A DNA stretch of 64,000 nucleotides from an uncultured Thiothrix sp. (GCA_902559815.1 CACEJE010000005.1:2170-66169), one strand, 5' to 3'; shown: positions 9,327-62,190, numbered from the stretch's first letter. The notes: generated by a model not told the origin, from the sequence alone. Program-made: numbers and translations.

Positions 9327-9396
9327 AAACTTTTTACTCATAAAATATAAAATTAGTTATCTAATTTTTTTGATTAATACAATATAGAAGAAAAAT

Positions 9397-10271: not shown

Positions 10272-10303
10272 TCTTAAAAAATTTTTAATTTAATTGATGT
10301 ATT

Positions 10304-26969: not shown

Positions 26970-28226
26970 ATGAAAAGGATAGCTATAATAGGATCAGGAA
27001 TATCCGGCTTATATGCCTCCTATCTTCTCTATAAAGACTACAACATAACTATTTATGAAAAAGAACAATATCTAGGTGGTCATACTAGAACATTATCAAT
27101 AGACTACGAGAAAGGTATTAAATTTAACGTTGATACAGGATTTATAGTATTTAACAAACAGAACTACCCTAACTTCTCAAAATTGCTTAATGAGTTAAAT
27201 GTAGACTGTGGAAAAAGCGATATGTCCTTTGCTATAACCAGTAACAGACACGAAGATCCAGAAATCAAATATTCAAATATTAGTAGTTTTTTTGTTAATA
27301 AAAAAAATATTTTGAGCTATAAACACTATAACTTGCTATATAATATAAATAAATTCAACTATTTATCTTATAAATCTATAAATAATATTAATAAAAATAT
27401 AAGAAATATAACTTTAGGCAAATTTTTAAAGGACAATAATTTTAATAATTTCTTTATAGAGAATTATATAGTGCCAATGGGTAGCTCAATCTGGAGTTGC
27501 AAACCTTCTCAAATACTCCAGTTTCCCTTCTTATCATATGCAAGATTTATGAATAATCACGGCCTTTTAAGTATTAACAATCAACCTCAATGGCTTTATA
27601 TTAAAAATGGCAGTAAAACCTATGTAAGAAGACTTGTAGAGCATATCGATGCTAATATTAGGTTGAATTCTGAGGTAAAAGAGGTGGTTAAGACCAATAA
27701 TGGTATAAAAATAATAACAGTAGATAGTGCTGATGAATATGACTACGTATTTTTTTGCAATCATCCTAATGAAGTGACAAATATAGGTAAAAACCTATCA
27801 AACCACCAAGCCGATGTCTTAAAAGACATAAAATACTCAAAAAACGAGGTTGTTTTACATAAAGATAGCTCAATAATGCCAAGAAATTACAAATGTTGGG
27901 CAAGTTGGGTATATAAAAAAACAAAAAATAACCAACCAATTTTATCATATTGGATGAATTCACTCCAAGATATAGATACAAAGTACCCTATTTTTGTCTC
28001 ATTAAATCCAGGAGATCAAATTAAAGAAGAAAAAGTTTTTAATAGGCACGTCTTAGAACACCCTATTTTTGATATAACTGCAAGAAATGCTCAAAATTTA
28101 ATACCACTAATTCAAGGAGAAAATAAATCTTTTTTTTGTGGGGCATATAACAAGTATGGATTCCACGAAGATGGAGTGGTATCTTCAATTAAAGCAGTTG
28201 AAAAATTAAAAAGTATTGATTTATAA
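26970..28226 (+). CDS. FAD-dependent oxidoreductase (amine oxidase family; UfaD-like)
   Basis: N-terminal GSGISGL dinucleotide-binding motif. It is first gene of a four-gene operon. Confidence 0.7.
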   Translation: MKRIAIIGSGISGLYASYLLYKDYNITIYEKEQYLGGHTRTLSIDYEKGIKFNVDTGFIVFNKQNYPNFSKLLNELNVDCGKSDMSFAITSNRHEDPEIKYSNISSFFVNKKNILSYKHYNLLYNINKFNYLSYKSINNINKNIRNITLGKFLKDNNFNNFFIENYIVPMGSSIWSCKPSQILQFPFLSYARFMNNHGLLSINNQPQWLYIKNGSKTYVRRLVEHIDANIRLNSEVKEVVKTNNGIKIITVDSADEYDYVFFCNHPNEVTNIGKNLSNHQADVLKDIKYSKNEVVLHKDSSIMPRNYKCWASWVYKKTKNNQPILSYWMNSLQDIDTKYPIFVSLNPGDQIKEEKVFNRHVLEHPIFDITARNAQNLIPLIQGENKSFFCGAYNKYGFHEDGVVSSIKAVEKLKSIDL

Positions 28227-28229
28227 TAA

Positions 28230-28958
28230 ATGAAATTTGTAAAAGCCATAGTATTTCATAAAAGAAATTGGCCAAAAGCCAACGAATTTTTATATAAATG
28301 TAATTATATCAGCATAAACTTTCCAATTAAAAATAAAAAAACAAATTTTTTTAGCTTAAATAAGTTTAATATTTTGTCTGTATATGAGCAAGATTATGCT
28401 AATGGGAATAACGATTTATTCATGTGGTGCAGCGATCTATTAAAAAATAGATATAATACAAAAATAGACAAATTAGAGTTAATAACCATGCCCAAGATCT
28501 TAGGATATGCTTTTAACCCAGTATCATTTATGTTTTGCTACTCAAAAGAAAAAATTGTTTGCACAATACTAAAGGTGAATAATACGTTTTCGGAAAATCA
28601 TTATTATATAAATCATACTTCAGAATCTGTACAAAACTATAACATTGAAAAACTTTTTCATGTTTCCCCTTTTCTACCTAGAGAAGGAAATTATAAAATA
28701 AAATATAATAATAGTAAGAATAGTATCAATTTTAATATAGATTACTATAATGATGATAATAAAAACATATTAGAAACCTATATAAAGGGAAATAAAACAA
28801 TAATTAAAAATAATTTTACCGTTTTAAAATATGCATTTACTTCGTTATATTTAATAACCAGAGTTATATATTTAATTCACTTACAGGCTGTAAAGTTATT
28901 CTTTAAAAAAATAAAATTTTATAAAAAACCTGAGCAAAATATTAATAAAATAACTTAA
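28230..28958 (+). CDS. DUF1365 family protein (UfaO-like)
   Basis: Size and position match DUF1365 in amine-oxidase/CFA-synthase clusters. The DUF1365 assignment is recalled from memory. Confidence 0.55.
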   Translation: MKFVKAIVFHKRNWPKANEFLYKCNYISINFPIKNKKTNFFSLNKFNILSVYEQDYANGNNDLFMWCSDLLKNRYNTKIDKLELITMPKILGYAFNPVSFMFCYSKEKIVCTILKVNNTFSENHYYINHTSESVQNYNIEKLFHVSPFLPREGNYKIKYNNSKNSINFNIDYYNDDNKNILETYIKGNKTIIKNNFTVLKYAFTSLYLITRVIYLIHLQAVKLFFKKIKFYKKPEQNINKIT

Positions 28959-28959
28959 T

Positions 28960-30129
28960 ATGAAATATTTAGAACAATTAAAAATAAACTTATTTATATC
29001 TACTTTAAGAAAATGTGATAAAGGTTCAATTAAAATAATTGATCCTGATAATAAAGTATTCGAAATAAATAAAACGTCTGAGATAATAGCCGACATAAAA
29101 ATAAATGATTGGTCTATAGTAAGCAATATGATTAAAAACGGAGATGTTGGTTTTGCGTCAGATTACAGAGATGGAAAATGGACTTCTTCAAATCTAAAAA
29201 ATCTTTTTACCTTTGCAATAATAAATGACAAAACATTATCAAAACTTCTATTTGGAAAACTTATTACAAGATTTTTTTCAAATATTAAGTATATTTATAA
29301 TAAAAATACTATTAAAGGTAGCAAAAAAAATATTGAAGCTCATTATGATTTAGGAAATAGCTTTTATAAAATATGGCTTGATGAATCATTAACATATTCT
29401 TCAGCTCTATTTTTGAAAGACAACAATACTCTTTATGATGCGCAGATTAATAAGTACAACCGTATCCGAGACATTTTAAAAACTTCAAATACTAATAATT
29501 TACTTGAGATTGGTACTGGCTGGGGTGGATTTTTAATGCAATCAAGAGATGATTTTAATCAATTGGATAGTATTACAATATCAAAAAGACAATACAAATA
29601 TGCTAGTGATTTACATAAAAATAATTCAAATATTAATGTAATTTACGATGACTATAGAAATATTGTAAAAAAATACAACTCGATTGTATCAATAGAAATG
29701 TTTGAGGCTGTAGGACAAGAATATTGGAATACATATTTTCAAAAAATTTATAATTTATTATCAAAAAACGGAAAAGCTGTTATACAAACTATCACTATTG
29801 ACGATAAGCTTTTTGACACCTATAAAAATAGCACAGACGCAATAAGAACATTTATTTTTCCGGGAGGTATGCTGCCCTCACCTAGTATATTTATGAAATA
29901 TGCAAAAAAAAATAGTTTTAATGTTTTAGATTCTTTTTCCTTCGGAGAATCATACTCGAAGACTTTAGATTTATGGAATGATAGTTTTAGAAAAAATATA
30001 AAAGAAGTAGAAAAATTAAATTTTGATAAAAAATTTATTAAAATTTGGGAATATTATTTAACCTCATGTTCATCAAGTTTTATTAACGAAAGAACAAATG
30101 TTTATCAATTTACACTCCAGAAAAATTAA
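28960..30129 (+). CDS. Cyclopropane-fatty-acyl-phospholipid synthase family SAM-dependent methyltransferase
   Basis: SAM motif LEIGTGWGG, with the C-terminal region typical of the CFA/mycolic acid synthase family. Confidence 0.8.
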   Translation: MKYLEQLKINLFISTLRKCDKGSIKIIDPDNKVFEINKTSEIIADIKINDWSIVSNMIKNGDVGFASDYRDGKWTSSNLKNLFTFAIINDKTLSKLLFGKLITRFFSNIKYIYNKNTIKGSKKNIEAHYDLGNSFYKIWLDESLTYSSALFLKDNNTLYDAQINKYNRIRDILKTSNTNNLLEIGTGWGGFLMQSRDDFNQLDSITISKRQYKYASDLHKNNSNINVIYDDYRNIVKKYNSIVSIEMFEAVGQEYWNTYFQKIYNLLSKNGKAVIQTITIDDKLFDTYKNSTDAIRTFIFPGGMLPSPSIFMKYAKKNSFNVLDSFSFGESYSKTLDLWNDSFRKNIKEVEKLNFDKKFIKIWEYYLTSCSSSFINERTNVYQFTLQKN

Positions 30130-30131
30130 TA

Positions 30132-30872
30132 ATGAAAAAATATTGGATTATTGGATCTAGCTCAGGCATTGGAAGAGAACTAGCTAAAAAACTTGATGCT
30201 AAAGGATATGAATTAATACTATCCTCTAGAAATGAAGAAAAACTTAATGAGCTTAATAATAGTCTTATTAATAATCATGAGATAATTCCGTTAGACTTAT
30301 CGAATAAAAGCCAATGCATTAATGTTTCTAAAAATATTATTAAAAAAGAAATGGACTCATTGCATATAATCTATATGTCGGCCACATATAGTCCAGATAA
30401 TTCCTCAGACTATGAAAATGTAATAAATGTTAATATTTTAGGACTACTGCACATACTTTCTGTCGCTAAAGAATTTTTAAAAAATACAAACTCTACCAGC
30501 CAACTAATTATTTGTTCTAGTCTAGTAGCCTATAAGGGTTTGCCATATAGCCAACCCTACTCTATGACTAAAGCAGCACTTTATAATTTCGCTTCCTCAC
30601 TTCATATTGAGCTAAAAGATATTGTTGATGTTAAAGTTATTACTCCGGGATTTGTAAAAACACCATTAACAGATAAAAATACTTTCCCTATGCCGCTAAT
30701 AATTAGCGCAAGTTCTGCTGCAAGTATTATTTCAAAGGGGTTAAACTCAAATAGATTTGAGATTAGTTTTCCAATTCCGATGTATTTAATTATGAAGGGA
30801 TTACAAACACTGCCAAATTTTATAAGTAATTATATATCCTCGTTAGTAAAGAAAGGAACAGATAAAATTTAA
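30132..30872 (+). CDS. Short-chain dehydrogenase/reductase
   Basis: GSSSGIG cofactor motif and a YSMTK catalytic region. Confidence 0.8.
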   Translation: MKKYWIIGSSSGIGRELAKKLDAKGYELILSSRNEEKLNELNNSLINNHEIIPLDLSNKSQCINVSKNIIKKEMDSLHIIYMSATYSPDNSSDYENVINVNILGLLHILSVAKEFLKNTNSTSQLIICSSLVAYKGLPYSQPYSMTKAALYNFASSLHIELKDIVDVKVITPGFVKTPLTDKNTFPMPLIISASSAASIISKGLNSNRFEISFPIPMYLIMKGLQTLPNFISNYISSLVKKGTDKI

Positions 30873-34624: not shown

Positions 34625-35767
34625 TTAACCTGTTAAATTTTCTTCATTCTCTAGGTTTCTATTTAAATTTTTAAAATAATTTAGTATCTCGCTTGGTCCA
34701 TTTTTAAGATACACATCTAAACTATTACCTTTGAATTCACAAAAAGATGAACTTGTTTCATAAATTTTGATTCTTTCTAGATTTGGTAAATAGGGAATTA
34801 AAATTTCCCATATAACAATAGATAAAAACTCAGTGCTAGAACGCCAGGATAGTTCAGGGCAAGTTAAGTTTAAGGTTTTGTGATCAAATTTGTCTATGAT
34901 TAAATTTTTTACGACTGCTTTAATTAGTGAATAGTCAACCACAAAACCAGTTAAAGGGTCAATTCTATCTTTAATAGAAATTTCAATATCATAACGACCG
35001 CCATGCATATTTTTACACTTTGCATCATGATCAGTAATATAATGCGCAGAATCAAATACAAGCTTTTTTGTTATCGTAGCTTCTGGCGAACTAATAAAAA
35101 ATTTATCATTAAAACAAGGTATTTTATTTAAAAATTCTTTAGTATTAGCTTTAAGTTTTTCACAATCATTTTTTGAAGCAAATCTTACAACAAATGTATC
35201 ATTAGAAATATTTAATTTAATAATTGAAATATCATAGGCATTTAATTGTTTTTTTAAATTTTGATATAAATTTTCTTCAATATTTTTTAAGTATATATAA
35301 TCTTTTAAAATGTACCCATTGTTAATAAGTAAGATTGCTAAATATAGAAAGAAATCTTTGGTCTTTGTGGTTTTTAGTTCAAGTAAATTAATATTTTCTT
35401 TATTATTTGATATAAAGTTTTCTGTAATAACTTTATGTGATTCGTGACTGTAATTATTAAGATCATCGTATTCGAACCCAAGGCTTGATAATTGATCATT
35501 AAGCCAAAACAAATAATTTAACTTACGAACCTCTTCATAAATATATATACGTCCATCTTTTAAAACTAGCTTATTTAAATCACTATAAGCTTTAAGAATT
35601 GTCTTTTGTTTTTCTGTAGTTTTTGCATTAACTACATTTTTTAATTTTTTTTTAATTTTATTTGATCCTAATGGATCTATGAGCGTTTCAATTGGTATCG
35701 CATGTTTTAGTGAATACTCTTGCAGTGTTAATCCATCTTTATATCTATTTTTATCTTTCAATGACAT
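34625..35767 (-). CDS. Fusion protein: unknown N-terminal domain (about 230 aa) plus C-terminal 6-pyruvoyl-tetrahydropterin synthase/QueD-like domain
   Basis: The C-terminus aligns by eye to the PTPS/QueD fold: FDSAHY, CKNMHGGRY, DPLTGFVVDYSLIK, FDHKTLN and an ETS tail. The expected HGH zinc motif reads HGG. Confidence 0.55.
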   Translation of the reverse strand: MSLKDKNRYKDGLTLQEYSLKHAIPIETLIDPLGSNKIKKKLKNVVNAKTTEKQKTILKAYSDLNKLVLKDGRIYIYEEVRKLNYLFWLNDQLSSLGFEYDDLNNYSHESHKVITENFISNNKENINLLELKTTKTKDFFLYLAILLINNGYILKDYIYLKNIEENLYQNLKKQLNAYDISIIKLNISNDTFVVRFASKNDCEKLKANTKEFLNKIPCFNDKFFISSPEATITKKLVFDSAHYITDHDAKCKNMHGGRYDIEISIKDRIDPLTGFVVDYSLIKAVVKNLIIDKFDHKTLNLTCPELSWRSSTEFLSIVIWEILIPYLPNLERIKIYETSSSFCEFKGNSLDVYLKNGPSEILNYFKNLNRNLENEENLTG

Positions 35768-35812
35768 TTAATTCGATGGCTAACCTCGTGGTAAAAATTT
35801 TATTAGCAAGAG

Positions 35813-35846
35813 TTGCGTCAGTCTTCATAAGGCGAAGCTGACGCAA
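35813..35846 (-). terminator. GC-rich 9-bp stem hairpin after fae (putative terminator or attenuator)
   Basis: TTGCGTCAG, a 16-nt loop, then CTGACGCAA lie 24 nt downstream of the fae stop. An A/U-rich tract follows on the transcript. Confidence 0.35.
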
Positions 35847-35869
35847 ATACTTACAAACATTAAGATGTT

Positions 35870-36394
35870 TTAGAATCCTTGGAAAGGATGGTCTGTAGCA
35901 TCTTTTTTAGCTAACATATCGTCAACAGAAGGTGTGCCTTTAACAGCAGCTTCTATAGCGCCTTTAGTAGCTTTATAGTTATTTTCATAAATAGCTTCGT
36001 CACTATTTGCTTCCCAATGGATAAATACGCCAACACATATGTAAAGATCGTCAGCTTCACCCTTTGGAATAACACCTGACTCAACGCTATCAGCAACAGC
36101 CATAGCTACTGCTTTCTGAGCAGGACCAAACATTTGAACAGCTTGCTTAGCACCTTTAATTGTAACTTTGTTAAACATCATAGTATTTGGTTTACAAACT
36201 AAGTTTGGGCCAACTACTGCTAATAAAGATGTAAAACCATCTTTGTTATTACAAAGACCATTACAAAATGCTGTTTCTACTGCTGAGCCTCTTGGACCGA
36301 TTAATAAATCGATATGAGCAATCTCTGCCATAGTTCCTGTTGGGTCGTTATCATTTACTAGACATTCCCCCACTAAAACTTTATTTATTGCCAT
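35870..36394 (-). CDS. fae: Formaldehyde-activating enzyme
   Basis: 174 aa, collinear with Methylobacterium Fae: [48 protein letters not shown] and VGVFIHWEA. Confidence 0.9.
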
Positions 36395-36471
36395 GATATA
36401 ACTCCTATTATTATAAATTATTGTAAAAAGTAGTATTCAATACTGAATTCCATTGAATAACTAAGTTTCAA

Positions 36472-37317
36472 TTATAAACCCAAGCGGTTGAAAAATACAC
36501 TAGCCACTACAACGTCAGCCGTTGTTCCAGGATTTAACCCTTGTATCTTAAGCTCAGAATCCAGTAATAACAACTTTTTATTTAATATTTTTGGGTTTTT
36601 TAGCTCACAATATTCATTTGCAAGCGATTTTACTTGTTCAGAGACGTTTTTTGCCTTCATAACACCATATTTTCTTGCAATCAGACTATCTGGCCTTTTT
36701 GACAGAAGACTTAAAAATGTTGCAGTTGTAGCAGACTCATCATTATTCATTTTATTAAAGCATATTCTCCAAAATGGAGATAAATTATTGATAATATTGT
36801 CAAAAAAACAATAATACTCGTTAGCAATATCATCGTAAGAACTTGCGTATTTCATAGCTTCGTAAAGTTTAAAATTACAATTGCCAGACTTTTTAATATC
36901 ATATTCGTCTTTTTCTCCCATTCCCCCAGCATTTGCTATATTAATTGCTTCATATATTTTTTTTGTTTGCTTATGATCAATATCTAGAATGGTTTTCTTT
37001 AAATTTTCTCGTGAAAATCTATGTTTCTCATCAAGATACAAACTTTGTACAATAGGGGTGCAGAGTAAAATAATACCTAGATTAGTGTTGCATCCAACCA
37101 CATCCACTGAAGATTTAACGCTTTCATATATCTTAGTGCCAATATCCATACCTTTTTCGCAAATAATGTCAGAGCATGCCATAGAACTTTGAAGGAAGTC
37201 TTTGTGCGTCATATTATAGCCAGGATTATTATATGAAACGTTACCTGGTTTTATTGAGAAAACATCAAGTTTGCAAGAATATTCAAATGCCATTTTAACT
37301 TGGGTCTCAGTTATCAA
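36472..37317 (-). CDS. Triphosphoribosyl-dephospho-CoA synthase (CitG)-like protein (orf7 of methylotroph H4MPT islands)
   Basis: LNPGTTAD motif and about 280 aa, embedded in the fae/mch cluster. Confidence 0.55.
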   Translation of the reverse strand: MITETQVKMAFEYSCKLDVFSIKPGNVSYNNPGYNMTHKDFLQSSMACSDIICEKGMDIGTKIYESVKSSVDVVGCNTNLGIILLCTPIVQSLYLDEKHRFSRENLKKTILDIDHKQTKKIYEAINIANAGGMGEKDEYDIKKSGNCNFKLYEAMKYASSYDDIANEYYCFFDNIINNLSPFWRICFNKMNNDESATTATFLSLLSKRPDSLIARKYGVMKAKNVSEQVKSLANEYCELKNPKILNKKLLLLDSELKIQGLNPGTTADVVVASVFFNRLGL

Positions 37318-38198
37318 TTTTTCTCCTTACAGATACGTAAAAAATTATTAATTATTTCGTCAGCAATAATCCTATCATTGTGAACTGACTGCAAACCTTT
37401 CCAAGCAGGAATACTATTTACTTCCGTTACCATATAGCCATTATCACCTAACATAATATCAACGCCTGAGTAATCCATATTTAGAGCATTAGAGGCCTTC
37501 AAAGCAATTTCTACCATTTCTCTTGAAGGCTTAAATGATTTACAAGAAGCTCCATTAGCGATATTGTTTATCCAAGTTTTTCCTTCGCGAACCATCGAAG
37601 CTATAACTTCGTTTTTTATAACAAATAATCTCCAGTCAATAAATTTACTCTCAGGATGATTTAAGTATTCTTGCAAATAATAAACATTATTTAAATTTTC
37701 ATAATCAGGATGAGAATTATTTTTATCCAAGATCTCCAATCCTTTGCCTTGGGAACCAAAGATAGGTTTAGAAACACATTTATTTTCAAAAAATTCTTTT
37801 TTAAATTTATTTAGATCTTTGATGTTACTTGTAATGTATGTTTTTGGCGTTGGAATATTACTCGCGCTCAATATACTTGATGTTCTTATTTTATCAACAC
37901 TTTTTTCAATGCATACTGTATTGTTATAAACACAGACATTATAAAGCTCTAAATAATGTAAAATATCTAAATGAAAGATAACTTCTTCGAGAGTACCGCC
38001 TGGTATGCCTCTTACAAAAGCACCTTCAATATCCTTTAAAAAATACTCTTTTGAGTCTATTATAATTTTAGGAATATCTTCAAGAACTAGTGATGAATTA
38101 TTGATTTTTGCAGTTATTACTTTTTTTTTATTTTTTTCAAAAGATTTTATTAATTGACTAGTATGCCATCCATCGTCTTCGGTAAAAATTAAATACAT
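37314..38198 (-). CDS. ATP-grasp RimK-like ligase (orf5/MptN-like, H4MPT glutamylation candidate)
   Basis: ATP-grasp motifs (KPIFGSQGKG, MVTEVNSIP) with 4-nt overlaps to its neighbours. Confidence 0.6.
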   Translation of the reverse strand: MYLIFTEDDGWHTSQLIKSFEKNKKKVITAKINNSSLVLEDIPKIIIDSKEYFLKDIEGAFVRGIPGGTLEEVIFHLDILHYLELYNVCVYNNTVCIEKSVDKIRTSSILSASNIPTPKTYITSNIKDLNKFKKEFFENKCVSKPIFGSQGKGLEILDKNNSHPDYENLNNVYYLQEYLNHPESKFIDWRLFVIKNEVIASMVREGKTWINNIANGASCKSFKPSREMVEIALKASNALNMDYSGVDIMLGDNGYMVTEVNSIPAWKGLQSVHNDRIIADEIINNFLRICKEKN

Positions 38199-38199
38199 T

Positions 38200-39162
38200 T
38201 TATATCCCGAAAGACTTTTTCATTAATTCAGAGTCGATATCACCACTTGTAAAAGTATTTCCAGTTTTCATATTTGATATTATAACTTTACTAGGGCTAA
38301 AAAGATTTCCATCTATTTTAAAAAAATCATATTCATAATCTTTAAAAATATCTGCAAAAGGCTTACCGTAATCATTTGATGTAGAGCTCGGCATTTTATT
38401 ACATAGATCTTTTGCCATATCGTCAGATGTATTTACGAATAGTTGGGTAACTCCTGCAAAAATTATTGCGTCATTTGTTCTGCCCATTGCAGTTAAGAAT
38501 TCTGGCGATGTTGGTGGTATTGGGGCGCTTCCAAAGCCCTCTATAATTTCGTTCATCGGAAATTTAAGTTCGTGTGCTTTATGTAGGGCTACTTCTAAAA
38601 CTCTTGAGACAACTTGTAAATTACCGGCGATACTAGATGTTGGGGTTAATATTATAGTTATATTTTCTGCTTTAACACCTGTGTCTTTTTCAATTTTTTC
38701 AACAATATCTTTTGGTGGAAAACAATCTACTTCCATTACGATACAAGTTTTATCGTTTTTATCTGAATAGTTAATATCTTTAAATAAAGCCTCTTTTAAA
38801 GCTAAAGCTCTACCTGGGCCAGAACCTAATGCGTTAAATTTTACACCCTCCTCCTTAGAAGATAAGCTCCATCCGGCATATTGAGATCCTAAGCAAGCAA
38901 TTACGGGGTCATTAGAATTTACGTGAACTGTAAGAGGCCATTCAGGTGCTTGGAAAGTATTTAAAATATGTACTCTACCTAGGCCACCTAGACATATTTC
39001 ACTAATTATTCTACCGGCCTCAATATTGCCAAGTGCATTTATTCCGGCGTCAATAATAGTTACGTTTTTATGTCCTTTAGAAACATCAACCCTATAATAT
39101 GACTTATTAAGAATTAAATCATCAACCAAGGTTTGAGCTTTTTTATTCACACTAATCATCAA
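38200..39162 (-). CDS. mch: Methenyl-tetrahydromethanopterin cyclohydrolase
   Basis: 320 aa with IIDAGINALGNIEAGRIISEICLGGLG, closely matching the Mch N-terminal signature. Confidence 0.85.
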   Translation of the reverse strand: MMISVNKKAQTLVDDLILNKSYYRVDVSKGHKNVTIIDAGINALGNIEAGRIISEICLGGLGRVHILNTFQAPEWPLTVHVNSNDPVIACLGSQYAGWSLSSKEEGVKFNALGSGPGRALALKEALFKDINYSDKNDKTCIVMEVDCFPPKDIVEKIEKDTGVKAENITIILTPTSSIAGNLQVVSRVLEVALHKAHELKFPMNEIIEGFGSAPIPPTSPEFLTAMGRTNDAIIFAGVTQLFVNTSDDMAKDLCNKMPSSTSNDYGKPFADIFKDYEYDFFKIDGNLFSPSKVIISNMKTGNTFTSGDIDSELMKKSFGI

Positions 39163-40313
39163 ATTATCTCTGTATTATTAAGTTCATTTTTTATTAATGA
39201 TATATTATCTGATAACAATTTATCAGCTTTTTTTTCATCATATGATTTGACACGTATTGTACATATAGGATCACCAGCTTCAATAAAGCAATTTGTTTTT
39301 GGCACATTAGATACAAAATCATATTTTAATAAGTCAAAAGTATATTTAAAATCTTCTTTAGCAAATATTGTTTCAAATGCATAGGATGAATTCTCTTCAT
39401 TGACAATATCTGGCATTTTGCCATTAATAATACTATCAATATGAGCGTTAACATAGCCGAGCTTGAAATAATCATCATACATAAAACAGGTTTGCGTTAA
39501 TCTTGGGTTTATTTCAAGAAAATAAATACTACTACCTTTAATAACGAAATCAATACCATTAATTCCAACTAAATCAAAATTATTAACAAAAAAATTAATT
39601 ATATTTTTTAATAATTCAATATAAGGAGGTTCTAGTTTTATATTTGATATGGCTCCAGAAAAACAATAATTTGTATTTTTTGTTTTTTTATTAAATATTT
39701 TATTAATACCAATTAATTTATAATCTTTTTTTTTATTAACAATAAAAAGTATTGAGTGAACATTTCCAGTAATAAACTCTTGAATATATTCATTGTCAGC
39801 TAAGATATAGTCTTTTGTATAATCTTTAATTCCAAATCCACCAGATAGATCTTTATTTTTAATTAGCTTTTTTTCTTTATTTAGAATTTCTAAATTATAA
39901 TCTTTTGGAACTTTAATTCCACTTTTATATAATTGATTAAATAATATTTTACTATATTTTGTTTCAGCAAATATATCTTGTTTGTTATTTGCTAAATAAC
40001 CATATTTGTTTAGATTTTCATCATAATCCCTTTTAGTATCAAAACCTGATGCGACGATTATTATAGTATCTTCTTTTTTTAAATTTAGTTTTTTTATTAT
40101 TTCAATAACATCGTCATTTACAAATCCAAAAGAGTTCTTATTTAAATAGCACTCTCCTTTTAAGTCGTCATCATTAAATGAGTCAATATTGATTACTCTT
40201 TTATTTAATTTAATAAGTGATTTACTGTGCTCAACTACTGAATTACCAATTATTATTATATTATTTTGATGATACATACTCTCTTGCAAGCTCAAGTGCA
40301 TCATGAAAATCAA
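39159..40313 (-). CDS. ATP-grasp family protein (orf17-like, H4MPT-associated)
   Basis: ATP-grasp-like C-terminal half, conserved in position between mtd and mch. The start may be an internal Met. Confidence 0.45.
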   Translation of the reverse strand: MIFMMHLSLQESMYHQNNIIIIGNSVVEHSKSLIKLNKRVINIDSFNDDDLKGECYLNKNSFGFVNDDVIEIIKKLNLKKEDTIIIVASGFDTKRDYDENLNKYGYLANNKQDIFAETKYSKILFNQLYKSGIKVPKDYNLEILNKEKKLIKNKDLSGGFGIKDYTKDYILADNEYIQEFITGNVHSILFIVNKKKDYKLIGINKIFNKKTKNTNYCFSGAISNIKLEPPYIELLKNIINFFVNNFDLVGINGIDFVIKGSSIYFLEINPRLTQTCFMYDDYFKLGYVNAHIDSIINGKMPDIVNEENSSYAFETIFAKEDFKYTFDLLKYDFVSNVPKTNCFIEAGDPICTIRVKSYDEKKADKLLSDNISLIKNELNNTEII

Positions 40314-41163
40314 GAAATACAGGTTTTTCTGAGCTAGCCATTTTTTTTAATAACTTGCTTTGTGCTTGATATTTAACTTGACCTATAGCAAGAGCACCAA
40401 TTCCTAGTGCGCCAGAAACGGAACCAGATAATTCCTTGCAGTCTTGCATAGCATCAAGGCCAGCCACACCTGAAGGAGGAACTGCATTTACATCAGCTGC
40501 AACTTTCAAATTCATTGCAAGCTTTAATTGCTCCTCAGATACTAGCTGAATACCAGCAGCACCGCTTGCAAGTACTATATCAACTTGGTCAATCATTTGA
40601 TTAAATTCATCGTTTGATGCGCCTGATATTTTTGCGTCTGAACCCAAATAGTTATCTATACAATATTTTGATAACTCTTCACATTTGTCCTTTTTCCTTC
40701 CCATTATTACAACATCTGCCCCTGCTGATGCCGCTAATATTCCGGCTATACAGCCAACTGGCCCAGTACCACCAAAGACAACAACTTTTTGATTTTCCAA
40801 AGACTTCTCAAACTTGTTTTTTAAAGAATCTTCTACTTTTGCAATCATGCCGGCTGCGGTTGTATATGCCCCACTTGGATCCGCAAAAGCAGAAACGGTA
40901 AATGGAGGAACTAATGAATTTTTACATATTTTTAACATTTCAATTGCTATATGTGGGTCTCTTCCACCAATAAAAATTCCTGTTTTATTTAAGCCTGGCG
41001 GCCTGGAAAAAATAGCATCTTGAACAATCCCCTCGACTTCACTAGCCTCGATATTAGTGTAAGGGACGCATTTATCCCATCCAGCATCATAGGCCATATT
41101 CACATCAAAAGGACTAAGATTTTTTGCTGTTGTTAACATATGCATTATTAATGGTTTACTCAT
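40261..41163 (-). CDS. NAD(P)-dependent methylene-tetrahydromethanopterin dehydrogenase (MtdA/MtdB family)
   Basis: Collinear with MtdA: FDV..AYDAG, IFIGG, DPSGAYTTAAG, a VFGGTGPVG Rossmann motif and GALGIGAL. Confidence 0.75.
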   Translation of the reverse strand: MSKPLIMHMLTTAKNLSPFDVNMAYDAGWDKCVPYTNIEASEVEGIVQDAIFSRPPGLNKTGIFIGGRDPHIAIEMLKICKNSLVPPFTVSAFADPSGAYTTAAGMIAKVEDSLKNKFEKSLENQKVVVFGGTGPVGCIAGILAASAGADVVIMGRKKDKCEELSKYCIDNYLGSDAKISGASNDEFNQMIDQVDIVLASGAAGIQLVSEEQLKLAMNLKVAADVNAVPPSGVAGLDAMQDCKELSGSVSGALGIGALAIGQVKYQAQSKLLKKMASSEKPVFLDFHDALELAREYVSSK

Positions 41164-41173
41164 AATTTATTCC

Positions 41174-42178
41174 TTATTTTATATTTAAATTTTTATCTTG
41201 ATTTATATTTTTGTTCTCATCGAATTCAATCAATGAGCCTTTATTACGACCTTTGATAATTTCTATACGTAAGTTTTTACAAAAAAAATTATTCCTAATA
41301 TCTTTTGTGAGTTTATGTGCTGAGGTATCACTATCTGCTAGAATAAATCCTGTCGGCCCCCATGAACTTTGACCAACACCCATAAAGCCTTTTTTTTCCA
41401 CATAATTCATGATATTTGCAATATCTTGATTTGAATAAACTCCTCCTTGTATCGGAGAAAAATGTGTTCCAACAACTTTTTGTAATTGACCTATACCTTC
41501 AGAAAAATCAGAAAAATTATTTTCTTTTAGGCTTGGTAATATTGCCATATTTACTAAACGACAAAGTTTTTCTGATAAAGTCCCAGGAAATGGTTTAAGA
41601 GTTTTAAAAGCATTATACTCTTTTTGGCCGTGTATACCTTTTTCTCTACTATTTATTAAAAGAATTATTCTCCAGTTATCTGGAAAATTTTGTCTCACTG
41701 TAATTGGTGGTAGTTCTGGCGACTTGCCTTTTCCACCATCAATTAAAAATCCACCACTTTCAAATGCACCTATGCCTATACCTGACCTATTACCTCTGTC
41801 TAGTACTTTTCCTATATCCATTAAACTTAAATTAAGATCAAATAATTTTGATACTGCAACTCCAACACTAAGAGCAAGCTGAGTTCCAGAACCTAATCCA
41901 GCATGCTCTGGAATTTTTTTATGAACGTCAATTAATACAGTTTCATCAACTTCGTAAGCTTTTAAAATTAAATCAGCATATTCATAAGCTCTTTTGTTAA
42001 TCTCATTTAATACTTTATTTTGATTTAATGAATTTTTTGAAACAGTTATTGACGTTTCAATGCTATTTATAGCTAATCCAACACTCCCAAATTTACGTCC
42101 AAGAGAGCCACTTAAATCCATAAAACCTAAATGTAGTCTAGCTGGAGAAGTTATTTTTATTTTTGTTTTAGTTTTCAT
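41174..42178 (-). CDS. mptG: GHMP-kinase-fold beta-ribofuranosylaminobenzene 5'-phosphate synthase-like protein
   Basis: GHMP motif HAGLGSGTQLALS at about 334 aa, first gene of the H4MPT module. Confidence 0.55.
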   Translation of the reverse strand: MKTKTKIKITSPARLHLGFMDLSGSLGRKFGSVGLAINSIETSITVSKNSLNQNKVLNEINKRAYEYADLILKAYEVDETVLIDVHKKIPEHAGLGSGTQLALSVGVAVSKLFDLNLSLMDIGKVLDRGNRSGIGIGAFESGGFLIDGGKGKSPELPPITVRQNFPDNWRIILLINSREKGIHGQKEYNAFKTLKPFPGTLSEKLCRLVNMAILPSLKENNFSDFSEGIGQLQKVVGTHFSPIQGGVYSNQDIANIMNYVEKKGFMGVGQSSWGPTGFILADSDTSAHKLTKDIRNNFFCKNLRIEIIKGRNKGSLIEFDENKNINQDKNLNIK

Positions 42179-47203: not shown

Positions 47204-47557
47204 GGGGGCGATCTGGATTCGACGTGGATTGCAAAGCCCTAGGTGCATGTCGAGTATATAGCTATTCTCGTTAAAAATGCTATAAACTTATAGTTGCAAA
47301 CGAAGACAACTACGCACTAGCAGCTTAATCCTGCTGGTCATCATTCAGAAACGTGCTTGTGCATTTCAGTTTGGTGTCGCTTAACACAAGATAGTAATTA
47401 TTTTCGCCATTAGAATAATTATGAAACCCAATTGGATAGTGTAACAAAGTGTCTGCTCGTTAACATTAGTTGCATGAAATTTAATAACGAAGCTAAACAT
47501 GTAGTACCGAAGGTAGAGGATTTGCGGACGCGGGTTCAATCCCCGCCGCCTCCACCA
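47204..47557 (+). ncRNA. ssrA: tmRNA (ssrA), standard one-piece form
   Basis: 5' GGGGGCGATCTGGATTCGACG pairs with 3' CGCCTCCACCA, including the G3:U wobble. It has a tRNA-like T-arm GGTTCAATCCCC. The tag reading frame GCA AAC GAA GAC AAC TAC GCA CTA GCA GCT TAA (47296-47328) encodes ANEDNYALAA. Confidence 0.85.
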
Positions 47558-47623: not shown

Positions 47624-48103
47624 TTAATTATCGTTATCAAAGTTTTTAAGATATTTTTTTAAACTGCTTTCTCGTAACTCGTCTGCTGTTCCGTCAAAAA
47701 GTTTACACGTGCTTTTTATCTGAGAGTTTTTATCAGGCGAAAAAGTAATATTCAAATCTTCTGTATCTAAATAGTAATCAAGCTTTGGGACTTCTACGAC
47801 TTTCTTTTTCCAGTTTTTCTCGTTATCATTTTTATTTAACTTATTATATATTTCTAGTTTTTTATCAGCTTTTAAATAAAGGTATCTAGGATTATTTAAA
47901 AAACCATATGTTCCCTCTCGGATTCCGATATCAAAATAAACAAGAAAATAATTAGTAGTTTGGTATCTTTTATTATCTAGAAAATTGTATGTTACAAGTA
48001 AATTATGTTCTTCACAAAATAAATTTATTCCACTCATATTCTTTGAAGCAAACACCTGTGAAGAAAATAAGAACAAACAGATTGTAAGTAACTTGGCTTT
48101 CAT
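47624..48103 (-). CDS. Hypothetical secreted protein
   Basis: Has a signal peptide and low-complexity, Asn/Lys-rich sequence. Confidence 0.35.
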   Translation of the reverse strand: MKAKLLTICLFLFSSQVFASKNMSGINLFCEEHNLLVTYNFLDNKRYQTTNYFLVYFDIGIREGTYGFLNNPRYLYLKADKKLEIYNKLNKNDNEKNWKKKVVEVPKLDYYLDTEDLNITFSPDKNSQIKSTCKLFDGTADELRESSLKKYLKNFDNDN

Positions 48104-48126
48104 TATTTAAATTTATTTAAAAAATT

Positions 48127-48525
48127 TTATTCACATAAATATTTAATTTTGGAAATGAAATATTTCATTGCCATATTGGAAGAAGAAAAAAATCTTGAGT
48201 CTAAGTATTCATCTTTTTCAATATTTTGAATATAAAATTCCCACGTAGCATATTGGGAATCATATTCATCCGGGGAGAAATCTTGCAGTATCAAAACAAA
48301 AACTGTTTTATTGTTTTTTGATAAAAATTTAATAGCACAGCCTTCAATTGAAAAATCACAGTGCTCGATATATGTATTATTTAAAAAAGGTTTTACAGAT
48401 TGATTGAAGTACTCAATTTTTTGAACAAGGTTTTTTTTATACATATTCTGACCTTTTTTTGGTTCAGATGTATATTTTGGCTGTTTTTGTTTATTTTTGT
48501 ATTCTTTAAGGTCCGTTACACTCAC
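48127..48525 (-). CDS. Hypothetical protein
   Basis: 132-aa ORF. Confidence 0.3.
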   Translation of the reverse strand: MSVTDLKEYKNKQKQPKYTSEPKKGQNMYKKNLVQKIEYFNQSVKPFLNNTYIEHCDFSIEGCAIKFLSKNNKTVFVLILQDFSPDEYDSQYATWEFYIQNIEKDEYLDSRFFSSSNMAMKYFISKIKYLCE

Positions 48526-48607
48526 AATAATTCCGAAAGATAAATAAATATTTTAAAATTAAATATATTATAATTAAATAAGCATTTTAATTACAGCTTT
48601 AAAAAAT

Positions 48608-51058
48608 ATGAACAATAATGCTATCCTAAACAATGTCATTGACGAGATAAATAGTCATAGGACATATAAAAACATAGTTTTAATACCAAAAAATTATTCT
48701 AAAAAATTTATATCATCTATTCTTTCTAGAAATGTTGAAAATGCTTATATAATTTATTATATAGACGAATATATTTTTCATTTAAATAATAATAATAGCT
48801 TCAAGTTATATAACAGTGACATAAAATATCTGAGCAAAGCTATATTTGAGATCAATCCTTACTTAGATAAAAATAATCAACTTCATAATGTTGAGAATAT
48901 TATGTCAATATTGCTATCTTTTTTTTTAGAAAAAAATCTTTTTGTAAAATCAGAATTAACCGCTAATCAAAAGTTGCAAGAAATTGAAAGAGACATGAAA
49001 CTACTTTCGTATGAATCCAAAATATTTTACGAAATTTGTAAATTATGGATTCAAAAATCTATAAATGACGATACATATATAAATTTATATCTTAATTTTT
49101 TGAACCAAGACATAAATCAGGAGAATAATAATTTTTATCATTTTATAAATAATAATAGCTTATCAGAAACTGAATTATCCTGGGTTAATAAAAATTTAAA
49201 AAAACTTATAAAGTATGATAGTTTTTTTAATGATGATATCTATAATCATAACTATAAACCATTATTTCTCAAAAAATACAAATCTTATGATTTTGATTCG
49301 CAAGAAGAAGAATTAGATTTTATATCTAATGATATAGAAAGTGTAATAAATAATAATAAGAATTCTAAGATAGCACTTATAAATAATAATAGATATTTTG
49401 GAAGGCGTCTTAGGGCTATTCTTGAAGAAAAAAATATTATAGTTAATGACAGTTATGGCTGGCTGCTTTCGACTAGCGCTTGTTGTTCTTATATAAATAG
49501 TTTATTAAAGTTCATGCTTTCAGAAGATAATTTTCTGAATATTCACGATATTATTATGTCGCCATTTTTTATGCCTAAAGATAAAATAGAAACAAAAAAA
49601 AAATATCTTGATAATATAGTTTTAAATAATAACCAAGATATTAATAGATCGCTGGAAGATATAATGAAAAATAATAAAGAAAAATATTCTTTATTATTAA
49701 AGCGAAATTTCAGAAAAAATATATTATATAAAAGTAGTGAATTTAGACATTTTATTATCAGTAAGCTTGAGATATTAGAATCGCTTGAATTAATAAAAAG
49801 TGATGAAGCAGGTAAAAAGTTTTTAGTATCATTAGAGAATTTTACAGAAACAACATCTGAAAAATACAGTATGAAAGAATGGCACAAAAAATTAATTAAT
49901 TATCTTAATGATTTAACCTTTGTAATAGAAAATTCTAGTAACATATTTTATATAGACATAAAACACGCAAATTTATGCAGTTTTGACAAAATATATGTAA
50001 GCTCTATGTCAAATACGCATTATCCTAGAAAAATTTTAAATAATTACTCAAAAAATAATGTTATATATAATGAGCTTTCAATTTCCTCTAATATAGAATC
50101 TGATGAATCTATAAGGGATTTTTTAAATTTATCAAAAATTACAGACTCAATATTACTAACATTTCATTCATCAGATTATGATGAAATTTTTTCTAAGAGT
50201 AAATTTAAAAATTATATAGATTTTTTTATAGAATCTTCAAATAAAACATTAAAAAAAGAAAATAATCATAATATCTCAACAAAAAATAAAAATAGAGAAG
50301 TTAAAATTTTTTTAGATAATGACTTTAAAAATTTAACTTATATAGATATTGAAAACTTTAATAATTGCTTTTACTGTTTCTATTCTGGAAAGAAATCTCC
50401 AAAAAGAAAATTATCGATTATTGAAAATAACTATTTTACTTTTGGCTTATTTGTTCATCATATTTTAGCTGAAGTAATAAATAAATACATCAAAGAAAAA
50501 AATATTACTTTTTTTGACGAACTAAATAAATACTCGCATTCTGCCAAACAATTATTTTATCCAAATAATAATGCATCATTAGATTTCGAACTTTGGATTA
50601 AAATTTTACCGCATATTTCTAATTATCTTACTGCGGATATTGATAAAAAATATAATTTCTCAACTGAAAAACGTATTTATTCCTCATATAAAAATTTCAT
50701 CAATCTTCAAGGCAGATCTGACCTTCAATATAAACTTGGAGATAAAAATTATGTTGTAGATTATAAAACTGGAGCTATTCCCAGTAAGAAGTCTGTTCTC
50801 AACGGAATTTCTCTTCAATTACCATTTTATTCGTATATAAACCAAAATTTTACAAATGCTGAGTATATAGGCATAAATATATCAAATAATACAATTAAAA
50901 AGTTAAGTTTTGATGTATCTGATTTTGATTATTCAAAAAATATAATTACTGAAAGCCTAGATAAAATATTCTTAAATATACAAAACAATATACCGTTAAT
51001 CGTAAAAAAAAGTTCACAAGGATGTTTAAATTGTGGGTATAAAAATATTTCTTTATAA
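48608..51058 (+). CDS. AddB-like PD-(D/E)XK nuclease family protein with Fe-S cysteines, lacking Walker A
   Basis: C-terminal RecB-family nuclease motif GRSDLQY...VVDYKTG. Flanking cysteines CFYC...CLNC fit an AddB/Cas4-type [4Fe-4S] site. The N-terminus IVLIPKNYSKKF resembles the AddB post-P-loop segment, but no GKT/GKS motif is present. The sequence is highly Asn-rich. Confidence 0.45.
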   Translation: MNNNAILNNVIDEINSHRTYKNIVLIPKNYSKKFISSILSRNVENAYIIYYIDEYIFHLNNNNSFKLYNSDIKYLSKAIFEINPYLDKNNQLHNVENIMSILLSFFLEKNLFVKSELTANQKLQEIERDMKLLSYESKIFYEICKLWIQKSINDDTYINLYLNFLNQDINQENNNFYHFINNNSLSETELSWVNKNLKKLIKYDSFFNDDIYNHNYKPLFLKKYKSYDFDSQEEELDFISNDIESVINNNKNSKIALINNNRYFGRRLRAILEEKNIIVNDSYGWLLSTSACCSYINSLLKFMLSEDNFLNIHDIIMSPFFMPKDKIETKKKYLDNIVLNNNQDINRSLEDIMKNNKEKYSLLLKRNFRKNILYKSSEFRHFIISKLEILESLELIKSDEAGKKFLVSLENFTETTSEKYSMKEWHKKLINYLNDLTFVIENSSNIFYIDIKHANLCSFDKIYVSSMSNTHYPRKILNNYSKNNVIYNELSISSNIESDESIRDFLNLSKITDSILLTFHSSDYDEIFSKSKFKNYIDFFIESSNKTLKKENNHNISTKNKNREVKIFLDNDFKNLTYIDIENFNNCFYCFYSGKKSPKRKLSIIENNYFTFGLFVHHILAEVINKYIKEKNITFFDELNKYSHSAKQLFYPNNNASLDFELWIKILPHISNYLTADIDKKYNFSTEKRIYSSYKNFINLQGRSDLQYKLGDKNYVVDYKTGAIPSKKSVLNGISLQLPFYSYINQNFTNAEYIGINISNNTIKKLSFDVSDFDYSKNIITESLDKIFLNIQNNIPLIVKKSSQGCLNCGYKNISL

Positions 51059-51059
51059 T

Positions 51060-51263
51060 CTAAAGTAAGTATAAAATTATTTTAACTAAAGAGTATAATG
51101 ATATTATGAATAAAATTGTTACAATTATTCCAACAATAATAAAATGGTAAGGCTTTCCGTTAGCAAAATCTCTTTTCCTATTTTTGTCCGATTGAATTCC
51201 TATAAAACTTGAAAGAATACTTAAAACTATTGTGAAAAAATTTAATTTATTTTTGTTGCACAT
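51060..51263 (-). CDS. Small membrane protein
   Basis: 67 aa with two TM helices, overlapping the rimI start. Confidence 0.3.
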   Translation of the reverse strand: MCNKNKLNFFTIVLSILSSFIGIQSDKNRKRDFANGKPYHFIIVGIIVTILFIISLYSLVKIILYLL

Positions 51264-51720
51264 ATTTTGCTAGCATTATTGCGTCTTCATATCCATTTAC
51301 AGCTGGATAATAATTTTTTCTTATACCAATTTCATTGTAACCTTCGGAAAGATATAATTTTAATGCTGATTTATTTGACGGCCTACATTCTAAAAAAATT
51401 AATTTGCAATTAATATTTTTTACTTCTTGTTGCAAATAATTTAATAATTGCCTTCCATAACCTAAACTCCTATATTCTTTTTGTATACATAAATTCATTA
51501 TATGGCATTCATCTTGCACTATAGAACTTATAACATAACCAATAAGATTATCATTTATTAACATTACTCTACACAAGTAATTATTACTTACACAATCATA
51601 AAATATATTTTTTGACCAAGGATAACCGTATGATTCCTTTTCGATATTAAATACATCTTCTAAATGCGAAGTATTCATATCCTCGTAATATGGTAAAAAT
51701 GAACTCTGGAGGCTACTCAT
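51247..51720 (-). CDS. rimI: Ribosomal-protein-alanine N-acetyltransferase (GNAT)
   Basis: GNAT motifs (RSLGYGRQLL) at RimI-like size. Confidence 0.75.
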   Translation of the reverse strand: MSSLQSSFLPYYEDMNTSHLEDVFNIEKESYGYPWSKNIFYDCVSNNYLCRVMLINDNLIGYVISSIVQDECHIMNLCIQKEYRSLGYGRQLLNYLQQEVKNINCKLIFLECRPSNKSALKLYLSEGYNEIGIRKNYYPAVNGYEDAIMLAKYVQQK

Positions 51721-61047: not shown

Positions 61048-62190
61048 TTAGCTCTCAATAATATTTCCAAGTGTTTTTGGTTCTAACTCGTACTGAGGAG
61101 ATATTGCTTTTGCCGGGCAAGCGTGAACACACGCATAACATCTAATACATTCATCTTCATTTATATACAATGTATTGTAATACAAACCAGACGTATATGC
61201 TGGATCTATTCTTTCAATCTCAGAATACTTTCCGTTATCTTTTAATTTTCCTAATTTAGCTGTCTCTACAATACAACCTGCAGTTGGTTTTACTAAAAGA
61301 CACTCATCACATAAAACACACTTCGAATTATCTATTATTGGTGCAGGTGATCTAGCGTCTTCAAATTTATCAAAAAACATCGAATTCTCAGATACGCCTG
61401 CTTGTTTAAGAACTTTAGCTCCTGCATCGATCATTGGTGGAGGACCACAGAAAAAAGCTTTGCAAGAGTCAGCCGAGACTATTCCTTTATCTAAGTACTC
61501 TTCTTTAAAATAATCTGTGACAAAGCCTCGTGCTCCATTCCAATCAGAATCATCTGGTTCTTCACTTAGAACAGGTACAAACTCAAACTTGAAATCTTTG
61601 TCCCACTTTGTGGAAATATTTTTAAGTTCATCAATTAAATATAAATCTTTTTGAGTTCTAGCGCCATAAAAGAAATAACAGTTTCTTTTTACTTTTTGGT
61701 GAATAGCTTCTTCAACAATCGCGTTAACTGCGCTCATACCACTTCCACCAGCTATACATATCATATCATCATTTGAATCATCTAATTTAAAGTAACCCAA
61801 AGGCGCAGAAATAATTATTTTTTCTCCAGTCCTATTTTTATCTAGCCATTGAGAAAATTCTCCACCTGGAACTTGCCTTATAAAGAAAGTATATTCATTT
61901 TTGTTTTCGCTTTTAGGAGATTTTGCAAATGAATACGCTCTTGGTTTTTCTAAACCATCTACTTTTAGCGTGGCATATTGACCTGCATGCGAATTAAATG
62001 GCAATGCATTATCATTACACTTAATTACAAGCTTAAATGTATCGCTTGTAAGATTATCCATGGACTTTACAACAGCTTCATTAATTTTAACTCTACTGTT
62101 TTGAACATCTGGATTAGGCGCAGAATTAATTTTACTTTTTGTGCTTGGAACACCGTTTTTTGGATAAATAAAATTTGATGCAGATGACAT
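61048..62190 (-). CDS. Electron-transfer subunit: FNR-like FAD/NAD(P)-binding domain plus C-terminal 2x[4Fe-4S] ferredoxin domain
   Basis: Has RAYS, a GGxFS-like flavin site, a GGSGM NAD site and two CxxCxxCxxxCP motifs. It abuts the molybdoenzyme gene with zero gap. Confidence 0.65.
   Translation of the reverse strand: MSSASNFIYPKNGVPSTKSKINSAPNPDVQNSRVKINEAVVKSMDNLTSDTFKLVIKCNDNALPFNSHAGQYATLKVDGLEKPRAYSFAKSPKSENKNEYTFFIRQVPGGEFSQWLDKNRTGEKIIISAPLGYFKLDDSNDDMICIAGGSGMSAVNAIVEEAIHQKVKRNCYFFYGARTQKDLYLIDELKNISTKWDKDFKFEFVPVLSEEPDDSDWNGARGFVTDYFKEEYLDKGIVSADSCKAFFCGPPPMIDAGAKVLKQAGVSENSMFFDKFEDARSPAPIIDNSKCVLCDECLLVKPTAGCIVETAKLGKLKDNGKYSEIERIDPAYTSGLYYNTLYINEDECIRCYACVHACPAKAISPQYELEPKTLGNIIES

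Follow-up and report, generated by a model that had tools for sequence, protein, structure and literature searches.

A stretch of 64,000 nucleotides from an uncultured Thiothrix sp. (GCA_902559815.1 CACEJE010000005.1:2170-66169; hereafter the window) carries eight consecutive minus-strand open reading frames (ORFs) at positions 34625-42178, which very probably constitute a native copy of the proteobacterial 'archaeal-like' island for tetrahydromethanopterin (H4MPT)-dependent formaldehyde oxidation. An earlier note, made from the sequence alone, had placed eight genes here and described them as an H4MPT-linked one-carbon module (Fae, Mtd, Mch, MptG, ATP-grasp and CitG-like proteins); ORF calls on the window returned all eight at those coordinates, and family profiles, homologs of solved structure and conserved gene order agree with the description. 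The order is mptG, an mtdB-like gene, an ATP-grasp gene, mch, a RimK-type ATP-grasp gene, a CitG-like gene, fae and a gene for a 380-amino acid (aa) protein with a PTPS domain. The pathway itself is textbook, with no new mechanism, and the last of these genes, a LAGLIDADG-PTPS fusion, is the only unusual and uncharacterised component.

Family assignments were made by Pfam and NCBIfam profile searches against curated cut-offs. Such searches had been named beforehand as the check on the module; none of the ORFs was reassigned to an unrelated family, and the Fae, Mch, MptG and RimK families all scored over their curated cut-offs. The mptG gene (41174-42178, minus strand, as are all features of the cluster) encodes a beta-ribofuranosylaminobenzene 5'-phosphate synthase of the GHMP fold (TIGR00144, 181.2 bits, cut-off 113.5). 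Its product reaches 213.5 bits with NF040726, under the equivalog cut-off of 328, and the gene occupies the same position in approximately 23 related loci; the predicted enzyme is that of the first committed step of H4MPT biosynthesis. The adjoining gene (40261-41163) specifies an NAD(P)-dependent methylene-H4MPT dehydrogenase with the Pfam domain Mpt_N (109.9 bits, gathering cut-off 27) and a Rossmann domain, and is 32% identical to the solved MtdA 6TLK/1LU9 (E 5e-33). The methenyl-H4MPT cyclohydrolase gene, mch (38200-39159/62; gene callers use the ATG at 39159 in near-identical loci), scores 392.5 bits with TIGR03120 (cut-off 228.8), and its product matches the solved Mch structures 4FIO (E 1.4e-71) and 1QLM (E 1.6e-69). 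The formaldehyde-activating enzyme gene, fae (35870-36394), scores 232.8 bits with TIGR03126 (cut-off 118) and 217.6 bits with PF08714, and the protein shares 65% identity with the solved Fae of M. extorquens (1Y5Y, E 4e-64).

The remaining four genes comprise two ATP-grasp ligase genes, orf7 and the PTPS-domain gene. The first ligase, OrfY/MyfA-like (39159-40313, with 40304 as the gene callers' start), matches ATP-grasp_3 at 76.7 bits. The second, a RimK-type, Orf5/MyfB-like homolog of MptN (37314-38198), matches TIGR00768 at 146.5 bits (cut-off 143.4) and MptN_Meth at 206.8 bits, under the cut-off of 350 for the latter. Orf7 (36472-37317) belongs to the CitG-like triphosphoribosyl-dephospho-CoA synthase family (Pfam CitG PF01874, 172.4 bits), lies far under the true CitG equivalog (29 vs 272 bits), and matches 3H9P in the PDB at E 1.4e-7. 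In the 380-aa fusion protein (34625-35767), the PTPS domain PF01242 (95.4 bits) is confined to the C-terminus. The junctions are looser than the 0-4 nt or small overlaps first reported: 77 nt (36395-36471) and 102 nt (35768-35869) separate fae from its neighbours, mptG and mtd are 10 nt apart, and the longest ORFs of mtd and the ATP-grasp gene share 44-53 nt.

The arrangement recurs well beyond the window. The order MptG-Mtd-ATPgrasp-Mch-RimK-CitG-Fae(-PTPS) is common to approximately 30 Gamma- and Betaproteobacterial loci, and methylotroph islands have the order mch-orf5-orf7-fae, which in Methylosinus trichosporium reads mch-orf5-orf7-fae-orf17 (PMC3615186). Compared with the islands of methylotrophic Proteobacteria (Methylorubrum extorquens AM1, M. 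trichosporium; PMC3615186, PMC8141765), the cluster has the same Fae, MtdB-type dehydrogenase and Mch, the same mptG, orf5, orf7 and orfY-like ATP-grasp gene, and an unchanged local arrangement mch-orf5-orf7-fae. It differs in that the HisA/F-like orf17 does not follow fae, the LAGLIDADG-PTPS fusion standing there instead, and in that fhcCDAB and the orf19-22 island are not adjacent. The host, a marine gammaproteobacterium with scaffolds of approximately 1.1 Mb and 29% guanine plus cytosine (GC), likewise sets it apart from cultured methylotrophs.

In the scheme that these genes suggest, Fae would join formaldehyde to (dephospho)H4MPT to give methylene-H4MPT, which the MtdB-type dehydrogenase would convert to methenyl-H4MPT with reduction of NAD(P)+, and Mch would hydrolyse methenyl-H4MPT to N5-formyl-H4MPT. 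In a fourth step, FhcABCD, presumably encoded elsewhere and carrying methylofuran as prosthetic group, would release formate. MptG would start the synthesis of H4MPT, the MyfA-like and MyfB-like ligases would make the polyglutamate tail of methylofuran, and Orf7 and the LAGLIDADG-PTPS fusion would probably serve the ribosyl and pterin branches. The Fhc step, the expression of the genes and a physiological source of formaldehyde are inferred. The pathway may serve detoxification, energy supply or true methylotrophy.

The two ATP-grasp genes tie the cluster to methylofuran. Published genetics identify orf5 (MyfB) and orfY (MyfA) as ATP-grasp glutamate ligases that make the methylofuran polyglutamate chain; they are not enzymes of H4MPT synthesis, methylofuran being the formyl carrier of the Fhc complex (PMC8141765). 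Similarity of MyfA to MfnD is only partial, and some strains hold a second, more MfnD-like paralog (PMC8141765). The ATP-grasp_3 protein of the window (39159-40313) likewise displays weak, partial similarity to MfnD_Meth (E 8e-10), the best PDB match of its profile is an ATP-grasp protein (3DF7), and it is the second-island ATP-grasp gene of relatives that matches MfnD over its full length. Because this MfnD pattern fits the published description (PMC8141765), 39159-40313 is best read as MyfA-like and 37314-38198 as MyfB-like, on the basis of family and position as well. Thus the proposal that the ATP-grasp genes are of cofactor-biosynthesis type stands, and their assignment to H4MPT gives way to methylofuran. 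Set beside the characterised MyfA (OrfY) and MyfB (Orf5) (Hemmann et al. 2021, PMC8141765), the window proteins share the ATP-grasp fold, the RimK/MptN-like one adjoins mch, and the other is partly MfnD-like; the likeness is one of family, position and description, and the MyfA-like gene evolves fast, being the fastest-evolving of the cluster (47-54% identity within the lineage).

Further genes of the pathway lie outside the window. A Tara contig (L274), 99.96% identical to window positions 1-12004, reaches 9.25 kb further left and carries there (L274:1-2044, window-equivalent -9253 to -7210) an MfnF/orf9-like gene followed by pabB, 7-9 kb left of the window. The MfnF-like gene scores 123 bits with TIGR03123 and 86.6 bits with MfnF, on a partial protein of 231 residues, and pabB scores 375 bits with TIGR00553 (cut-off 328). 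In mid-GC 'Thiotrichales' metagenome-assembled genomes (MAGs), a second island follows the cluster and comprises, by NCBIfam assignment, a HisA/F-related orf17, an ATP-grasp gene closer to MfnD, an MfnF-like gene (TIGR03123, orf9), pabB and an MfnE-like gene (orf21). The MfnF-like and pabB pair is part of a second H4MPT/methylofuran island, and its position outside the window means that the genome holds more of the pathway. A genome devoid of H4MPT biosynthesis genes would have argued against the module; with mptG over its cut-off and this pair outside the window, such genes are not all lacking. A further 12.9 kb upstream of L274 on its contig, TARA_SAMEA2623774 scaffold_191, may hold the rest of the second island, or fhc.

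The host is an uncultured, genome-streamlined marine gammaproteobacterium. The exact Fae protein occurs on a scaffold of ENA assembly ERZ23498582, of 1,077,127 bp with 29% GC, and in 124 blocks of a public collection, which bears out the streamlined, AT-rich host that had been supposed, and all window proteins checked were also found on a 67,720-bp NCBI contig and in Tara/JGI marine assemblies. GC content per 2 kb across the window is 22-36%. A scan restricted to one genome per species gave nine close relatives (L007-L014 and L037), with Mch 77-94% identical, GC contents of 29-31% and, in two of them, contigs of 1.06-1.11 Mb; the records of these close relatives comprise MAGs titled 'Gammaproteobacteria bacterium' or 'Thiothrix sp.' and a single-cell genome from the tropical ocean. 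Moreover, the window contains a one-piece transfer-messenger RNA (tmRNA) at 47204-47557 (Rfam, 216 bits; tag ANEDNYALAA) adjoining rmuC; one-piece tmRNAs fit the Beta- or Gammaproteobacteria, those of Alphaproteobacteria being generally two-piece. The sdhCDAB, gltA and mdh genes, which the earlier note had used for a comparison with Methylophilaceae, are present in the window, and that comparison is moot given that the closest genomes are deposited as Gammaproteobacteria. Every related locus fetched from the lineage runs purL, mptG, mtd, ATP-grasp, mch, RimK-like, CitG-like, fae, PTPS-fusion, holB, ykuD; purL-cluster-holB is kept in nine related genome records and also where the PTPS-fusion is only 45-55% identical. 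The purL-mptG adjacency extends to Porisulfidus genomes of 53-61% GC.

The eighth gene of the cluster encodes a degenerate LAGLIDADG homing-endonuclease fold (approximately residues 50-225) followed by a PTPS/QueD-like T-fold domain (231-347). The N-terminal 230 residues gave no Pfam match. An AlphaFold model based on 20 lineage homologs had a mean predicted local distance difference test (pLDDT) score of 77; from residue 50 to residue 230 the majority of 10-residue blocks averaged approximately 86-96, with a dip to 73-83 at 101-140. A model of the N-domain alone displays the double alpha-beta-beta-alpha-beta-beta-alpha fold of LAGLIDADG homing endonucleases, and all 50 of the Foldseek rows listed for it were LAGLIDADG-type (49 of these with a probability of 1.00). 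The family is very small: a profile of the N-domain, run against 1.84 billion representatives, recovered just 37 clusters (at 50% identity). Four distant members match Pfam LAGLIDADG_2 at E 1e-22 to 1e-30, in a segment placed between a putative zinc finger, sub-threshold in Pfam, and the PTPS domain, and this match by sequence confirms the fold.

Relatives with intact motifs retain LLGDG and AIWYMDDG. The window fusion has lost LAGLIDADG motif 1 and has LLINNG at motif 2, a segment that varies among the orthologs of H4MPT clusters; as the pair of motifs is not intact, the protein is not classed as an active endonuclease. The zinc-finger cysteines of the mid-GC orthologs are also gone from it. 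A Ros/MucR identity was considered for the N-terminal CCHC zinc finger of the relatives and dropped, as Pfam scores of 18-24 bits, short of the gathering cut-off (25.4), give only a hint; a PDB profile search with this zinc motif did not recover Ros. In the C-terminal domain, the PTPS catalytic residues C251, D295-H296 and E337 are invariant across the orthologs, and every ortholog has C-x3-H-G-G in place of the C-x3-H-G-H of QueD, so that the third zinc-ligand histidine is replaced by glycine; a nearby extra invariant histidine (TDH) might substitute as zinc ligand. Compared with its closest known counterparts, namely WhiA and other domesticated LAGLIDADG proteins and the phage QueD genes that carry homing-endonuclease domains, the window protein is fused to a pterin-enzyme domain rather than to a helix-turn-helix, and lies in an H4MPT operon. 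Within the literature searched, no paper combined both domain names (LAGLIDADG and PTPS/QueD).

Members with intact motifs are found on phage-like contigs, beside T4-endoV-like, dUTPase, Vut_1-family (PF02592), GTP cyclohydrolase I or QueE genes; a search of deposited phage genomes gave no full-length match to the fusion. In our reading, a mobile element gave rise to the homing-endonuclease-QueD fusion, which became fixed 3' of fae in some Gammaproteobacteria before its nuclease decayed. We tentatively extend this to a phage-derived zinc finger-LAGLIDADG-QueD fusion that was captured by gammaproteobacterial H4MPT islands, lost its nuclease and came under purifying selection, and that would represent an undescribed type of protein, either a new pterin-branch enzyme that supplies H4MPT synthesis or a pterin-responsive, DNA-binding regulator of fae. 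A separate and independent in-frame fusion of a homing endonuclease with an enzyme of the 7-deazaguanine pathway is found on a 131-kb IMG/VR viral contig (L196:3319-6372), where QueE is followed approximately 1 kb downstream on the same strand by a protein of 440 aa that combines two helix-turn-helix-like repeats with an intact pair of LAGLIDADG motifs and a QueD domain.

It is doubtful that the fusion is simply the QueD of this genome (the 6-carboxytetrahydropterin synthase of queuosine synthesis) with a defunct homing endonuclease attached and no relation to H4MPT, a proposal that nevertheless has several observations in its favour. The queE and queC genes adjoin each other a short way past the right end of the window, and no queD accompanies them (L064:515-1848, L275:4818-6151), the fusion is the only PTPS/QueD-family gene seen in approximately 85 kb, and the company kept by the intact-LAGLIDADG relatives on phage-like contigs includes GTP cyclohydrolase I, Vut_1-family proteins and QueE. 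QueD (TIGR03367) is also the best NCBIfam match of the fusion; however, its 74 bits fall under the equivalog cut-off of 89.25. The change of HGH to HGG in all orthologs stands against this proposal as well, as does the location of the gene, which lies directly after fae in 17 Gammaproteobacterial H4MPT loci of 29-61% GC. The protein could thus act as an H4MPT pterin-branch enzyme, as the cell's QueD or as a pterin-sensing DNA-binding protein, and we do not choose between these roles.

Several observations weigh against the reading of the cluster as an island for H4MPT-dependent formaldehyde oxidation, one being the lack of Fhc genes nearby. As the earlier note had stated for the window, tblastn with FhcA-D from related loci found no fhc in the 64 kb; nor did fhcABCD turn up in the approximately 9 kb examined beyond each end of the window or within 10 kb of the cluster in the nine relatives. 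MfnE, MfnB and orf17 were not seen in the window or its approximately 9 kb extensions, and neither were DmrA and a DHPS-like gene. Among the window genes checked by Pfam and NCBIfam, none was identified as coding for an enzyme that yields formaldehyde, such as a methanol or methylamine dehydrogenase or the like. The enzyme activities of the cluster products are predicted from homology, and the dehydrogenase at 40261-41163 is called MtdB-type from gene order only, the sequence references being MtdA. Finally, genes of the cluster are split in some relatives, namely the ATP-grasp gene in L001:6091-7236 and L013:5598-6753 and mptG in L002:4217-5221 and L008:6980-7991. These splits, and that of the PTPS fusion in L005:10628-11759, could be strain-level pseudogenes or decay, or assembly errors, short-read contigs being among them. 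The orf19/20 genes were also not seen in the window and its extensions.

The search for fhc was carried beyond these flanks. The 9 kb right of the window holds tol-pal, bamD, queE and queC, with no fhc. A profile search with FhcD placed no lineage member in the best 120 of 8000 matches, and among the matches listed in a second such search only other low-GC lineages appeared. Similarly, a scan of metagenome DNA with an AT-biased codon pattern for the IEDTFAEAF motif gave, among the matches listed, fhc from three other low-GC lineages only (X, Y and MarineAlpha6). These marine lineages (27-32% GC; X, L069/L104; Y, L170/L185/L076/L126 (774 kb contig); MarineAlpha6, L156) have complete H4MPT clusters with their own mptG-mtd and with fhc adjoining mptG, and in high-GC loci fhcCDAB is divergent and upstream of mptG. 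In lineage Y, fhcD and fhcC come straight after a short FhcB-like gene, fhcA being absent from between them, and the cluster is flanked by a pterin-4a-carbinolamine dehydratase gene and hopanoid genes.

These absences could mean that Fhc has been lost and that the pathway is a truncated relic ending at formyl-H4MPT, either decaying or retained as a one-carbon buffer or formaldehyde sink. We consider this unlikely. It is favoured by the lack of fhc in the window, the extensions and the flanks of every lineage member, by the divergent position of fhc beside mptG in many other bacteria, including the three low-GC marine lineages, and by the split ATP-grasp and mptG ORFs of some related assemblies. 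Conversely, the cluster genes are under purifying selection as strong as that on their housekeeping neighbours: in a comparison with the closest species (L013), the ratio of non-synonymous to synonymous substitution (dN/dS) was 0.018 for fae and lay at 0.046-0.118 in the other cluster genes included, with holB in the same range (the ATP-grasp gene, split in L013, was left out). Furthermore, the splits affect different genes in different assemblies, some of them long-read, and no fhc lies within 10 kb in mid-GC relatives that share the gene order, indicating that a distant location of fhc is normal for the clade. The methylofuran-specific MyfA/MyfB genes and the MfnF-like gene have been kept, which would be pointless without Fhc (PMC8141765). 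Judging by the description of methylofuran as a formyl-carrying coenzyme interfacing with Fhc (PMC8141765), that complex would be its only known user, and since three methylofuran genes are kept whose only known use is Fhc, we consider it likely that Fhc is encoded elsewhere in the genome.

The island for H4MPT-dependent formaldehyde oxidation is old, native and vertically inherited in the clade, and is thus not the accessory one-carbon module that the earlier note had envisaged. The comparison of GC content and codon usage proposed at that time revealed no difference between the cluster and the other 51 window genes: GC is 0.311 vs 0.290, GC at third codon positions (GC3) is 0.197 vs 0.202 (p 0.92), and synonymous codon usage is indistinguishable, while dN/dS and synteny point the same way. 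Recent acquisition, by horizontal transfer of a methylotrophy module into a heterotroph, is highly improbable and was rejected on composition and synteny: H4MPT islands are patchy among bacteria and the eighth gene has phage-like relatives, but the composition of the cluster is indistinguishable from that of its surroundings, no tRNA, integrase or repeat boundaries were found at the cluster, whose flanks are purL and holB, all lineage members down to 45% identity carry it at the same place, and the purL-mptG adjacency recurs in the distant Porisulfidus genomes.

Two RNA signals bracket fae. A stem-loop between orf7 and fae (36432-36462, minus strand) has nine predicted pairs, eight of which show compensatory double changes among 10 lineage members, and is followed by an invariant ribosome-binding site, TTATAATAATAGGAG, before the fae ATG. 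Just 3' of the fae stop codon lies a hairpin (35813-35846, minus strand) with a minimum free energy of -28.5 kcal/mol (z-score -4.5 against shuffles) and 12 pairs, three of them with compensatory double changes among seven lineage members; it is a candidate terminator, attenuator or mRNA-stabilising element. A consensus scan for a sigma-70 promoter before fae found none. Codon usage is most deviant in fae of all eight cluster genes, and Fae, the gene with the lowest dN/dS above, is 92-99% conserved within the lineage. From the hairpins on both sides and the strong ribosome-binding site, it appears that the fae message is separately stabilised and abundant within a longer same-strand run from purL to holB. 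In M. trichosporium, fae transcripts exceed those of neighbouring genes by at least 40-fold (PMC3615186).

Elsewhere in the window and its flanks, a 749-aa cytoplasmic molybdopterin oxidoreductase is encoded at 61048-64000, continuing into L064:3447-5696 / L275:7751-10000, and adjoins genes for a 380-aa FAD/NAD(P)/2x[4Fe-4S] reductase, an ammonium transporter and a GPH/MFS symporter. Its identification as a formate dehydrogenase was rejected, as it scored under all curated cut-offs and was approximately equally close to dimethyl sulfoxide/trimethylamine N-oxide (DMSO/TMAO), nitrate and formate enzymes. The mobA and mobB genes are located at 12827-13919. At 26970-30872, a plus-strand block of four genes, conserved across the lineage and present in L189 too, encodes an amine oxidase, a DUF1365 protein, a cyclopropane-fatty-acid-synthase-like methyltransferase and a short-chain dehydrogenase. 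The lowest GC of the window (22-23%) is found at 48000-51500, a region with a gene for an 816-aa PD-(D/E)XK-domain protein (48608-51058) and two small ORFs with no family match.

Streamlined marine bacteria of the SAR11 type have tetrahydrofolate (H4F)-linked oxidation of one-carbon units, a functional analogue that presumably serves energy supply or detoxification, and the two systems differ in their cofactors (H4MPT and methylofuran vs H4F) and employ unrelated enzymes. The fusion gene provides a small example, amenable to testing, of how a selfish homing endonuclease may be domesticated within a cofactor operon. More broadly, a streamlined and widespread ocean gammaproteobacterium, with scaffolds of approximately 1.1 Mb and a GC content of 29%, keeps a costly, two-cofactor route of formaldehyde oxidation under strong selection, and at least three other low-GC marine lineages likewise keep H4MPT-dependent formaldehyde oxidation. 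This points to the oxidation of formaldehyde or methylated compounds as a core trait of several groups of oligotrophic plankton.

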